Source: Candidatus Falkowbacteria bacterium
Lineage (GTDB): Bacteria; Patescibacteriota; Patescibacteriia; UBA11705; JABHMO01
DNA length: 64,000 nucleotides
Reading direction: 5' to 3'
Assembly: GCA_018674305.1 (NCBI GenBank)
Contig: JABHAL010000015.1
Coordinates: 30,683 to 94,682, forward strand
Below are positions 13,092 to 63,670 of this stretch, piece after piece (positions within the stretch are counted from its first letter, which is position 1; each line of letters begins with the position of its first letter). Under the pieces are notes generated by a model. It was not told the origin of the DNA and did no database searches. It saw only the letters and a list, made by a program, of their open reading frames with translations. Both the position numbers and the translations under genes were made by a program.

Positions 13092-13123
13092 GCCTGCCTA
13101 CCGTAGTTTTAACGAAGGTAGGA
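13092..13123. repeat. 31-nt hairpin element (cctacc-gtagttttaacgaa-ggtagg), member of a family also found at 63465-63495
   Basis: 26/31 identity to the reverse complement of 63465-63495, with a compensatory double change in the stem. Confidence 0.5.
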
Positions 13124-53256: not shown

Positions 53257-53295
53257 ACCTGCCGAAGCTCAACAGAGCAAAGGCAGGTTTTTTAT
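53257..53295 (+). terminator. Rho-independent terminator (acctgcc...ggcaggt tttttt)
   Basis: 7-bp stem plus T6. Confidence 0.7.
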
Positions 53296-61934: not shown

Positions 61935-62177
61935 CTATGAAAATTCTGGGGGTCCGTGACCAGCTCCACCGAACATGCTTTCTTCAGTTAGTATACTACC
62001 CATAGCAGGGCCAATTGGATGACCTTCCTTGTCAAGCATTTGAAAGCAACCCAAGCAAACCTCCTTATCAATTTCAGGTGCACCCACCTCTGCGTAAAAT
62101 GTTGCTTCAAATCCACAACCTTTACATTTCACATTTTTGCCAGGCCCGAGATTTTCACCAAATAAGCCTTTTTTCAT
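61935..62177 (-). CDS. Small zinc-ribbon protein (CxxC...CxxC), GC-rich; start placed at MKKGLF
   Basis: CKGCGF...CLGC; about 42% GC; terminator downstream. Confidence 0.35.
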   Translation of the reverse strand: MKKGLFGENLGPGKNVKCKGCGFEATFYAEVGAPEIDKEVCLGCFQMLDKEGHPIGPAMGSILTEESMFGGAGHGPPEFS

Positions 62178-62237
62178 AATTTGCTCCTTGTGATTTACCT
62201 GCATTCAAAGCATAGCAAAATCACTTCAATTTGACAA

Positions 62238-62278
62238 TAAAAAAACTCTGCCTTGATATTATCAAGAACAGAGTTGTA
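62238..62278 (-). terminator. Rho-independent terminator (aactctg...cagagtt) with T-run
   Basis: Imperfect long hairpin followed on the minus strand by ttttttatt. Confidence 0.55.
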
Positions 62279-62289
62279 AATTCATATCA

Positions 62290-62571
62290 CTAAACGCTAA
62301 TCACAATTTTTCCAGCTGTGACTTGACCATTTACCCATCGGTTATCACTTTTGTCCCAGCGCAAATTGTGTCTACGGAAAAATCGTTCATTTACAGCCTT
62401 TTCAACTCGGCCAACAAGGAATGTTGGGACTCTGTTGATTCGGCCACAGACCACAATCAAGTCAGCATCCTCAGGAACGTCCTCAGCCGAGGAAAATCGT
62501 TTGATGATGTCAGGCCTGATTGTTAGTACCTTCTGACTTCGCGGAAAAGCATAAAATTCCAATCGATTCAT
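62290..62571 (-). CDS. Hypothetical protein (93 aa from MNRLEF), GC-rich
   Basis: Strong AAGGAGG ribosome-binding site 8 nt upstream of the ATG at 62571 (the ORF-track start at 62652 is rejected). Confidence 0.45.
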   Translation of the reverse strand: MNRLEFYAFPRSQKVLTIRPDIIKRFSSAEDVPEDADLIVVCGRINRVPTFLVGRVEKAVNERFFRRHNLRWDKSDNRWVNGQVTAGKIVISV

Positions 62572-62683
62572 TTGCGTCAAACCTCCTTTGTTGGTTATTA
62601 ATAACGCGTTAATAGAGTAACAAACAAGCCTCAATTTGTCAAGAGTAAACAAAAAATACAGCTTAATTTGCCATATTTTTTGC

Positions 62684-62839
62684 TTACTTTGTTTCTTTGT
62701 GCGAAGTATGAATTTTACATTTCTTGCAATATTTCTTCAGTATCAATTTTTCCTTTATCTTTTTCTTATTGCGTCGTGAATGATAATTTATACTTCGACA
62801 CTCTGAACATTGTAATTTGATCAGATTGTCTTGTGACAT
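62684..62839 (-). CDS. rpmG: 50S ribosomal protein L33 (51 aa: MSQDNLIKLQCSECRSINYHSRRNKKKIKEKLILKKYCKKCKIHTSHKETK); missed by the ORF track
   Basis: Own translation of the minus strand; zinc-ribbon CxxC...CxxC and KLxLxKYCxxCxxHTxHKETK match bL33. Confidence 0.85.
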   Translation of the reverse strand: MSQDNLIKLQCSECRSINYHSRRNKKKIKEKLILKKYCKKCKIHTSHKETK

Positions 62840-62909: not shown

Positions 62910-62980
62910 GGCTGCGCCATTCGATATGTCCGTTGGAGCTTTACGCGAAAACGGAAGCTCCGACTCATGGAGGAGCGAAG
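62910..62980. repeat. Left copy of the 40-nt direct repeat (ggctgcgccattcga|agctccgactcatggaggagcgaag), interrupted by a 31-nt hairpin insertion (62925-62955)
   Basis: Identical to 63305-63344 except for the inserted tatgtccgttggagctttacgcgaaaacgga. Confidence 0.7.
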
Positions 62981-62990
62981 TTACAGTTTC

Positions 62991-63248
62991 CTATTTTTTA
63001 ATAAAACGTTTATTTGTAAATGCAATACCCGATGCAGTTTTAAGATATGTTTCGAAGTTCAAAGCCATTATTTTATCATCAAATGCACAATAAAATTTCA
63101 ATTTCCAAGGTTTGTATTTATTCGTATATTTACTTCTTCCATCATTATGGTGCTTCAGTCTATCAAAAACACTAATTTCTGTAAATCCCTTATATAAATA
63201 TCCATGATTTATACTTTCAATCAAATAAACAAAATAGGGTTTTTGCAT
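62991..63248 (-). CDS. GIY-YIG nuclease family protein (YhbQ/UPF0213-like, 85 aa)
   Basis: YFVYLIES...GYLYKGFT...RLKHHNDG...PWKL motifs. Confidence 0.65.
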   Translation of the reverse strand: MQKPYFVYLIESINHGYLYKGFTEISVFDRLKHHNDGRSKYTNKYKPWKLKFYCAFDDKIMALNFETYLKTASGIAFTNKRFIKK

Positions 63249-63304
63249 ATAGATACGGCCCTTCTTCGCGTTAAGCTACGAAGGACATTCTTCGCTTTTT
63301 TTAC

Positions 63305-63344
63305 GGCTGCGCCATTCGAAGCTCCGACTCATGGAGGAGCGAAG
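63305..63344. repeat. Right copy of the 40-nt direct repeat flanking the GIY-YIG ORF, abutting the tRNA-Thr 3' end
   Basis: Exact match to the two halves of 62910-62980. Confidence 0.7.
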
Positions 63345-63346
63345 AA

Positions 63347-63422
63347 TGGAGCCGACGGAGGGACTCGAACCCACGACCAATAGTTTACAAAACTACTGCT
63401 CTACCAACTGAGCTACGTCGGC
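63347..63422 (-). tRNA. tRNA-Thr (anticodon UGU), 76 nt, CCA-encoded
   Basis: Manually folded: acceptor GCCGACG/CGUCGGC, D GCUC-AGUUGGUA-GAGC, anticodon stem GUAGU/ACUAU with loop UUUGUAA, T-arm GUGGG-UUCGAGU-CCCUC (one U-U mismatch), discriminator U, CCA. Confidence 0.75.
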
Positions 63423-63448
63423 CTGTTTTTTGTAAATTGCAACAATCT

Positions 63449-63561
63449 CACGACCAATAGTTTATCTACCTACGTTAAAACTCCGGCAGACAGGCAAAAC
63501 TACTGCTCTACCAACTGCTGCGTCCTCCGAAGCTTTATGCGAAGGCGGAAACTACGTCGGC
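63449..63561 (-). pseudogene. Truncated 5' copy of tRNA-Thr (positions 1-51) interrupted by two ~31-nt insertions (D-stem, 63518-63549; anticodon between nt 35/36, 63465-63495)
   Basis: Segments GCCGACGTAG / CAGTTGGTAGAGCAGTAGTTTTG / TAAACTATTGGTCGTG identical to the intact gene; the T-arm and 3' half are absent. Confidence 0.5.
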
Positions 63562-63624
63562 GAAACTGTATGACGATAATAACAAATCAACTGTAAATAG
63601 TCAAGTGTGAATAAACCCTTTGAG

Positions 63625-63670
63625 AAAAGAAAAGGCAAGGATCGATTTAATCCTTGCCTTTGGGTTTATT
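63625..63670 (-). terminator. Rho-independent terminator (aaggcaagga-loop-tccttgcctt)
   Basis: Perfect 10-bp stem 6 nt after the GNAT stop, followed by a T-rich tract on the minus strand. Confidence 0.65.

Follow-up and report, generated by a model that had tools for sequence, protein, structure and literature searches.

Palindromes dispersed over bacterial chromosomes and paired with an enzyme gene are represented by the repetitive extragenic palindromes (REPs) and their REP-associated tyrosine transposases (RAYTs). For the CGTC-tagged REPs, including Neisseria dRS3 and Rickettsia RPE-4/6, no associated transposase was reported (Di Nocera et al., 2013; PMC3733652). Enzymes with the GIY-YIG fold include the homing endonuclease I-TevI, which cuts CN^NN^G (PMC12774661), and the Slx1-type enzymes, which cut branched and hairpin DNA according to the titles of their PDB entries. 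Here we analyze the locus of an 85-residue stand-alone GIY-YIG nuclease, located between the genes for tRNA-Thr and the ribosomal protein L33 (rpmG), in a 64,000-nt stretch (hereafter the window) from Candidatus Falkowbacteria bacterium (contig JABHAL010000015.1). We know of no defined role for stand-alone UPF0213/Slx1-like GIY-YIG proteins.

This locus represents a single instance of a module that is widespread at the 3' ends of tRNA and transfer-messenger RNA (tmRNA) genes and combines hairpin units with a gene for a GIY-YIG protein of ~80 residues. We favor, with a probability of about 50%, a REP/RAYT-like pairing, in which a presumably structure-specific nuclease would act on dispersed hairpins anchored at tRNA ends.

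A widespread module at tRNA and tmRNA gene ends

The tRNA, nuclease, and rpmG genes are read from the minus strand, and all positions refer to the 64-kb window. In this sense, a promoter-like site is followed by a pseudo-tRNA-Thr, the intact tRNA-Thr, a leader, an A-rich spacer, the segment AGCGAAGAAUG, a second hairpin, the open reading frame (ORF), 10 nt, a second copy of a repeat, the promoter-like site of rpmG, and rpmG itself (Table 1). We found no promoter-like site between tRNA-Thr and the nuclease ORF, and the only terminator-like hairpin on this strand (63631-63661) lies upstream of the first promoter-like site. The locus is 100% identical in contigs of several marine samples and in GCA_018670895.1 (Candidatus Falkowbacteria); it is thus no assembly artefact.

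All leaders are assembled from hairpin units of one family. The units are 26-40 nt long and consist of a 6-bp outer stem, TTC/TWC internal loops (W, A or T), and a GC-closed inner hairpin of variable sequence, in the order outer arm, TTC, inner hairpin, TWC, second outer arm. In the first unit, U1, the 5' arm is formed by the tRNA CCA and a variable triplet xyz, and the 3' arm reads z'y'x'TGG. U1 of the window has the outer arm CCAUUC, with the CCA of the tRNA 3' end, pairing with GAAUGG, two UUC internal loops, and the inner hairpin GCUCC...GGAGC; starting from the last three tRNA bases, the leader reads CCA-UUC-UUCGC-[hairpin]-CUUC-GAAUGG-C-GCA-GCC. The leaders of relatives share the modules A (CCA-xyz-TTCGC), B, C, and D, several of which were assigned by eye from the sequences. 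Segment C has the general form GCGAAG-z'y'x'-TG and is able to pair with bases also used by the U1 outer stem, to which it is an alternative; it is used in the minimum free energy fold of the window leader. Unit D, with GUA/GAA internal loops in the mRNA sense, ends ~10 nt before the nuclease start codon in the window and 0-20 nt ahead of it in many loci.

A word-indexed search yielded eight close homologs only. One homolog directly follows a tmRNA gene (L007) and another a tRNA-Lys gene (L009), with leaders that begin alike. A profile scan with one genome per species gave 442 relatives, the best 80 of which were analyzed as loci, with associations between gene and unit counted on genome fragments. 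These 80 stem from Patescibacteria, Peregrinibacteria, Bradyrhizobium, Sphingorhabdus, Marinimicrobia, Dependentiae, Omnitrophota, Lentisphaerae, and others. A tRNA gene (12 isotypes) or tmRNA gene on the same strand ends 65-500 nt upstream of the ORF in 66 of them; most of the other 14 have a tRNA- or tmRNA-like ...CCA end and then the same leader, or are cut off by the contig end. Units precede the nuclease gene in essentially all 80 loci, across many phyla.

The covariance model R1, built for the minimal unit, was run over the whole window with filters off, its E-values being rough. Seven matches reached E ≤ 0.01, the next one having E = 2.6, and five of the seven lie at 62929-63549, no farther than about 650 bp from the nuclease gene. 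The same model gave 114 matches in 82 related loci, ~100 of them (by a hand count from the match table) within 500 nt upstream of the ORF; this region makes up about a tenth of the sequence searched, which corresponds to a roughly tenfold enrichment. In metagenome contigs, at least 119 stretches contain the pattern CCATTCTTCG-N(8-38)-CTWCGAATGGC, with at least 127 U1 matches. Among the matches listed, 74 directly follow a tRNA or tmRNA gene called by ARAGORN (~18 isotypes), and 29 of the 127 have a nuclease gene downstream, mostly at a distance of 110-280 nt; the remaining ones listed are solo, apart from a few that lie in coding sequence by chance. A C or D module or both come after roughly half of the listed U1 units, even in places where the ORF is missing. 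Within contigs bearing the nuclease, other tRNA genes carry their own U1 with different stems, as illustrated by four tRNA genes with four different units in one contig (L036).

These counts bear on the simplest explanation, according to which a housekeeping UPF0213 gene merely sits where unrelated REP-like or terminator hairpins gather after tRNA genes. It would be in line with the solo state of most units among the matches listed and with the strong purifying selection and synteny in Bradyrhizobium described below. We nevertheless regard such a coincidence as very unlikely, given the units ahead of the gene in essentially all 80 loci from many phyla, their roughly tenfold enrichment there, and the lack of T runs after the units. 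For want of such T runs we also rejected the units as terminators.

The protein, named in the database as a GIY-YIG nuclease of Candidatus Falkowbacteria, scores 49.7 bits with PF01541 (cut-off, 22.6 bits; E = 4.6e-13). Residues Y8, Y19, R30, H34, and N35 are invariant in 8 homologs and E66 (FExYLK) is found in 7 of the 8; the putative catalytic set, namely the tyrosines of GIY and YIG, the arginine, the histidine, and the metal-binding glutamate, thus appears conserved. The AlphaFold2 model (predicted local distance difference test score 92) has the element order E-E-H-E-H-H (E, strand; H, helix), that is, a three-stranded sheet flanked by helices, and superimposes on the Slx1 nuclease domain with a template modeling score of up to 0.71 and a root-mean-square deviation of 2.0. 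The best matches among PDB sequences were the UPF0213 protein BH0048 (1zg2, E = 3.4e-10) and Slx1 (7cq2, E = 2.8e-07), and Foldseek retrieved 1zg2 and Slx1 at E = 4e-4 to 5e-3 but I-TevI at E > 1. The protein belongs to the SLX1/UPF0213 clade, not to the homing clade. At E ≤ 1e-10, we counted 3,548 clusters for the family, of which the best 150 hold nothing beyond the ~80-residue domain. Because the protein falls in the SLX1/UPF0213 clade and lacks a DNA-binding domain, it is not a classical homing endonuclease. The preliminary description, made from the sequence by eye, had correctly recognized a YhbQ/UPF0213-like nuclease, which the profile and structure classification bore out; its suggestion of a homing-endonuclease-like element fails on the same two grounds, the missing DNA-binding domain and the clade.

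Many database gene models of the family (proteins P0009-P0157) comprise 100-130 residues with the domain at the C-terminus, and it looks as if their start codons were placed too far upstream, within the leader. We found no member of the family in the phage, plasmid, PHROG, or PADLOC collections and therefore dismissed an origin from a phage, plasmid, or defence system; three pattern matches in viral contigs comprise two chance occurrences within coding sequence and one tRNA end at a contig edge. In one locus (L074, 850-1581), two tandem divergent nuclease paralogs follow a single tmRNA gene. The tRNA-Ala/nuclease locus of Bradyrhizobium is syntenic in 13 species, with a median ratio of nonsynonymous to synonymous substitutions (dN/dS) of 0.043 at a dS of about 1.3. 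As judged from these sequence comparisons, the Bradyrhizobium gene is under purifying selection and vertically inherited. An extra unit noted 1.5 kb upstream in Bradyrhizobium loci turned out to be an artefact of the regular expression inside coding sequence.

Hairpin units as small insertion elements in DNA

The pairing of the units is maintained by covariation. The complement of xyz followed by TG was found downstream in 53 of 57 leaders, which contain 11 distinct xyz triplets, whereas controls with swapped triplets gave a mean of 4.3 and a maximum of 9. Within the inner stems, Watson-Crick pairs account for 93% over 117 distinct U1 units. In 37 minimal 26-nt units, picked beforehand by a pairing filter that inflates the percentage paired and not the variety of pair types, both sides change in 8 of 9 pairs; the observed score was reached by none of 500 shuffles, and slid registers also score far below the observed one. 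G.T and A.C pairs are equally frequent in the units (12 vs 12), so that there is no excess of G.T. We rejected the idea that CTTCGAATGG in the repeat mimics a tRNA T-loop, because its central bases covary with the triplet after CCA and vary among loci. We likewise discarded a loop-loop pairing in which the W of CTWCG (module B) would contact that of CGWAG (unit D), as no consistent covariation appeared across the leaders read. Rfam covariance models returned nothing at E ≤ 1 for the window leader, and in 20 related loci only tRNA and tmRNA reached the gathering score; we found no Rfam family covering leader or units.

The units are small insertion elements in DNA. They are nested in the CTT^CG loop of a repeat copy in the window and of a unit in L036, reside inside the inner loops of other units (L104, L106, L136), and form tandem arrays with a 31-nt period (L168, L175). 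In an IS91-type transposase gene (PF14319), the part for the zinc-binding domain is broken by two units, and U1 is flanked there by CCA on both sides; this broken gene was seen in L101, L112, L149 (13366-13731), and L164. L164 and L101 share the insertion site and the units, but the ORF is present in L164 and absent in L101. The pseudo-tRNA-Thr of the window, situated between the promoter-like site and the intact tRNA-Thr and devoid of the T arm and the 3' acceptor strand, carries one unit in its D loop and another, in opposite orientation, in its anticodon loop. The occurrence of units in both orientations, in coding sequence, in a tRNA D loop, and in an anticodon loop requires insertion at the DNA level. 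For a small GIY-YIG gene of a related subfamily, one tRNA-Gln locus is available with and without the gene (L158, 1040-1640, and L207, 6680-7000); the insertion in L158 is flanked by a ~21-nt duplication from the 5' part of the next tRNA, and its upstream duplicate has hairpins in the D loop, a signature matching the pseudo-tRNA of the window. A CNNNG rule of the I-TevI type for all insertion sites holds for the nested site and for the two D-loop sites of tRNAs, but the anticodon-loop site breaks it; we dropped it as a general rule, keeping it as a lead only.

Four observations make us favor the REP/RAYT-like pairing. The unit occurs in both orientations, and would thus form a single structure as DNA but two as RNA; G.T pairs do not outnumber A.C; Slx1-type enzymes cut branched or hairpin DNA; and the gene is single-copy, stable, and surrounded by its own repeats. 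In the mechanism we propose, the single-copy nuclease would be transcribed by read-through from the tRNA promoter and would recognize or cut the folded units as DNA, and host repair of the resulting breaks would duplicate, nest, and spread the units. The leader repeat after the ORF could arise by duplication or by recombination between units, and recombination between the flanking copies could drop the ORF and leave a solo unit.

Several points weigh against this pairing. GIY-YIG enzymes cut but do not join DNA, so any spread of the units would depend on host repair. The unit stems of L036 differ within one genome yet stay paired, and stem differences with preserved pairing point to a functional hairpin kept by selection more than to copy-and-paste in the recent past. 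In Bradyrhizobium the locus shows long-standing stability, and a pattern for the cassette-free junction, with or without the nested unit, had 0 matches in the metagenome contigs. The pre-selection of the 37 minimal units by pairing also belongs on this side. Finally, the leader RNA folds well, with two alternative helices (A-B and A-C) at an equal energy of -32.8 kcal/mol, both covarying, and such helices fit an RNA switch or a processing signal.

The last point leads to a module acting at the RNA level, in which the units would be structured tRNA trailers and a 5' leader, and the GIY-YIG protein would process RNA or ride as a passenger. Pairing of U1 with CCA would direct tRNA 3' processing from a tRNA-mRNA co-transcript, translation would be controlled by the A-B and A-C helices together with the D hairpin, under which a purine-rich stretch for ribosome binding may be hidden, and solo units would be functional trailers or leftovers of ORF loss. 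Besides the two covarying folds of equal energy and the pairing kept between divergent copies of one genome, the missing promoter-like site between tRNA and ORF and the position of D, 0-20 nt before the start codon in many loci, speak for it. GWA/GAA 3x3 loops are a familiar RNA motif. Against it, we know of no RNase activity in the SLX1/UPF0213-type clade, units have inserted in both orientations into coding sequence, D loop, and anticodon loop, G.U pairs show no excess over A.C, and the fold z-score of the leader is only -2.0. On the other side, a prokaryotic Slx1-like domain fused to TrmH, with a suggested role in RNA metabolism (Dunin-Horkawicz et al., 2006; PMC1564403), again suits the module. 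On balance, we consider the RNA-level explanation the leading alternative, though clearly less likely than the REP/RAYT-like pairing.

More speculatively, and in our estimate improbably, the hairpin leader could be cut from the tRNA precursor at CCA and serve, in a guide-like manner, as the nucleic-acid specificity component of a nuclease lacking a binding domain of its own, with ...z'y'x'UGG pairing with CCA-xyz and directing the GIY-YIG domain to the ends of tRNA genes. If so, guide-like targeting by structure and pairing would explain how the units home to CCA ends.

Bracketing repeats and neighboring features

In agreement with the preliminary description, the ORF is enclosed by two copies of a 40-nt repeat, and the left copy is split by a 31-nt insertion that is a true hairpin. 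The copies are exact over 15 + 25 nt, and the insertion is located in the CTT^CG loop. The 15-nt part, GGCTGCGCCATTCGA, is exact at 62910-62924 and 63305-63319, and the 25-nt part, AGCTCCGACTCATGGAGGAGCGAAG (27 nt if two flanking bases common to both copies are counted), at 62956-62980 and 63320-63344. Elsewhere in the 64-kb window neither half was found, even with 2-3 mismatches tolerated, and two matches were reached in none of 100 shuffles. Read in the tRNA sense, the first base of the right copy is the third base after CCA. The 40-nt repeat starts past CCA and includes no tRNA sequence, unlike the repeats of integrase islands, which are made of a tRNA 3' segment. Once the structure of U1 is known, the 40-mer is recognized as U1 without its first five bases, extended by a short GGC-NNN-GCC tail.

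The bracket recurs in 5 of 67 loci: 2-20 nt past the stop codon, the leader reappears with 97-100% identity, short of its first 2-11 bases. These loci, the window, L053, L057, L064 (123 nt), and L075, belong to unrelated lineages, and nothing was found following the second copy in them. Tandem duplication would account for this recurring geometry, and so would recombination at a resident unit. In the window, the usual ...GCCA tail closes the rpmG-side copy alone, a pattern compatible with a solo unit that already stood after tRNA-Thr.

According to the preliminary description, a homing or site-specific cassette had duplicated a 40-nt target; Campbell-type integration at a resident solo unit is a variant of this idea. 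The exactness of the copies, the downstream one starting 10 nt after the stop codon, the same geometry at 97-100% identity in L053, L057, L064, and L075, and the ...GCCA tail on the rpmG-side copy alone are in keeping with it, as are the presence and absence of the ORF beside the same units in related contigs and the foreign or duplicated tRNA 3' fragments next to the leaders of L063 and L037. Yet 62 of 67 relatives have no downstream copy, the upstream unit is a conserved part of the leader and not a target, the protein has no DNA-binding domain and lies outside the homing clade, a recombinase gene is missing from the neighborhood, the metagenome contigs yielded no empty site, and the Bradyrhizobium gene is vertically inherited. 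We therefore take insertion with target duplication to be unlikely; it may describe how an ORF-bearing copy reached a resident unit but leaves the repeat itself unexplained.

What had been read as a target duplication is neither that nor an attachment site but the core of a conserved hairpin unit, which opens the leader wherever the family is found and also occurs solo after many other tRNA genes. Whether the repeat is a generic dispersed one has a divided answer, as the unit family is dispersed but the exact 40-mer is unique in the window. Relatives with the gene and without flanking repeats had been named as a counter-indication: the upstream unit was always present, and the copy after the ORF occurs in only 5 of 67. 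Empty tRNA-Thr/rpmG junctions, for which a search had been suggested as a check, were not found among the metagenome contigs. Of the small mobile cassette proposed originally, one part stands: the locus differs from ordinary intergenic DNA and bears the typical marks of a selfish or mobile module linked to a tRNA gene. The likeness to homing endonucleases does not hold.

Table 1. Positions of the module, its hairpin units, and adjoining genes in the 64-kb window
Feature	Position	Strand	Remarks
Solo unit, intergenic	13097..13122	minus	R1 36.4 bits, E = 1.5e-07
Solo unit, intergenic	53258..53287	minus	R1 21.2 bits, E = 0.0027
rpmG (L33)	62684..62839	minus	downstream neighbor, module boundary; own promoter-like site 62896-62868
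Left copy of 40-nt repeat	62910..62980	minus	begins 10 nt past nuclease stop codon; split by nested unit
31-nt insertion, nested hairpin unit	62925..62955	minus	R1 match 62929-62955, 22.5 bits, E = 0.0012
Stand-alone GIY-YIG nuclease ORF, SLX1/UPF0213 type	62991..63248	minus	85 residues; Pfam PF01541
Unit D, inverted orientation	63259..63285	plus	R1 22.5 bits, E = 0.0012
Segment C (AGCGAAGAAUG)	63286..63296	minus	11 nt, 100% complementary to tRNA end plus leader start (CAUUCUUCGCU)
Right copy of 40-nt repeat	63305..63344	minus	U1 minus first five bases plus GGC-GCA-GCC tail
U1	63312..63349	minus	R1 29.8 bits, E = 1.1e-05
Intact tRNA-Thr(UGU)	63347..63422	minus	CCA encoded; Rfam tRNA 71.9 bits
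Pseudo-tRNA-Thr	63449..63561	minus	copy of tRNA positions 1-51 with two hairpin units; aligned to intact tRNA
Unit in anticodon loop of pseudo-tRNA, opposite orientation	63465..63490	plus	R1 19.3 bits, E = 0.0096
Unit in D loop of pseudo-tRNA	63523..63549	minus	R1 21.8 bits, E = 0.0019
Sigma-70-like promoter, TTGACT-17-TATTAT with TG	63576..63604	minus	sole promoter-like site upstream of tRNA/nuclease unit

The unit at 13097-13122 is followed by CAGGCAAGCC, which resembles the U1 tail. Genes for GNAT, peptidase M28/M20, L33, and PMT_2 proteins neighbor the locus, among which there is no recombinase gene and no HUH gene. Two small conserved ORFs downstream of rpmG (61935-62204 and 62290-62652, minus strand) have no Pfam or NCBIfam match, the former being Cys-rich with CxxC pairs. 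A weak match to the Rfam family L10_leader (62230-62395, minus strand; 27.1 bits, E = 0.09), below the gathering score, overlaps a hypothetical ORF of 93-120 residues downstream of rpmG and is probably due to chance. Two contigs of the same population as the window (L003 and L006) stop inside the pseudo-tRNA and exactly at U1, which suggests that assemblies break at hairpin repeats. In L063 (1-320), a foreign tRNA-Gly 3' fragment adjoins the leader downstream of an intact tRNA-Gly, and in L037 (2176-2200), 10 nt of the tmRNA 3' end are duplicated; both look like traces of transfer along with a tRNA end.

Comparison with known systems

Small mobile GC-rich hairpins near mitochondrial tRNA genes in an AT-rich genome, the PstI palindromes of Neurospora and the GC clusters of yeast, have been proposed as processing signals. 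They differ from the present units in being organellar, unrelated in sequence, and devoid of a dedicated linked nuclease gene of this type. In the full-text literature that we searched, no GIY-YIG gene linked to a tRNA and accompanied by hairpin repeats is described, although a description may exist elsewhere. The module provides the stand-alone UPF0213/Slx1-like family with a concrete, testable nucleic-acid partner, and a minimal 80-residue nuclease with a defined hairpin substrate could serve as a molecular tool. Because the units touch CCA, split tRNA copies, and over-extend ORF calls, they affect the annotation of tRNAs and genes in Patescibacteria and other metagenome-assembled genomes.

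Free-standing GIY-YIG homing endonucleases, such as I-TevI and SegB of phage T4, the latter in a tRNA cluster, resemble the module in their catalytic fold, selfish behavior, and location beside tRNA genes. The unit loops, C-TTC-G and C-TAC-G, follow the CNNNG form of the I-TevI site, but not all insertion sites here fit CNNNG. Moreover, homing endonucleases have a long DNA-binding domain and are borne by phages or introns, whereas a bare 80-residue chromosomal domain is found here. IS200/IS605 insertion sequences and their palindrome-associated derivatives are likewise hairpin-defined, insert by a short specific sequence (here CCA), and have non-autonomous copies that outnumber the gene-bearing ones. 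Neither an HUH transposase nor TnpB is present here, however, and the hairpins do not form left and right ends around a gene.

The CGTC-tagged REPs share with the units the state of orphan palindromes, unpaired CCA tails, and a wide occurrence in Bradyrhizobium and other alpha-proteobacteria. Their described consensus, made up of CGTC, an 8-9-bp stem starting with AT, a 4-5-nt loop, and CCA, does not agree with the TTCG...CTWC unit. The layout of stem, mismatched trinucleotides, and GC-closed loop is shared with the GTAG-3 REPs (PMC3733652). The module may also bear on why some REP families have no transposase (PMC3733652).

The REP/RAYT systems (REPtrons, REPINs) are among the nearest counterparts. 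Their palindromes are short and dispersed, share a conserved motif, and show compensatory changes in the stem. They are present as singletons, inverted pairs, nested copies, and clusters, together with a single-copy, vertically inherited gene that is under selection and flanked by its own repeats; all of this is found here as well. The locus departs from them in that the CCA of tRNA and tmRNA genes serves as the anchor of the units, with the nuclease gene downstream on the tRNA transcript, and in a copy number that appears low (seven in 64 kb). It is not a member of the REP/RAYT systems because of its enzyme class, a GIY-YIG nuclease of the SLX1/UPF0213 type and not an HUH Y1 (IS200-like) transposase. 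If the proposed pairing is correct, a second class of enzyme, a nuclease in place of an HUH transposase, would join the REP/RAYT type of association between a gene and its dispersed palindromes.

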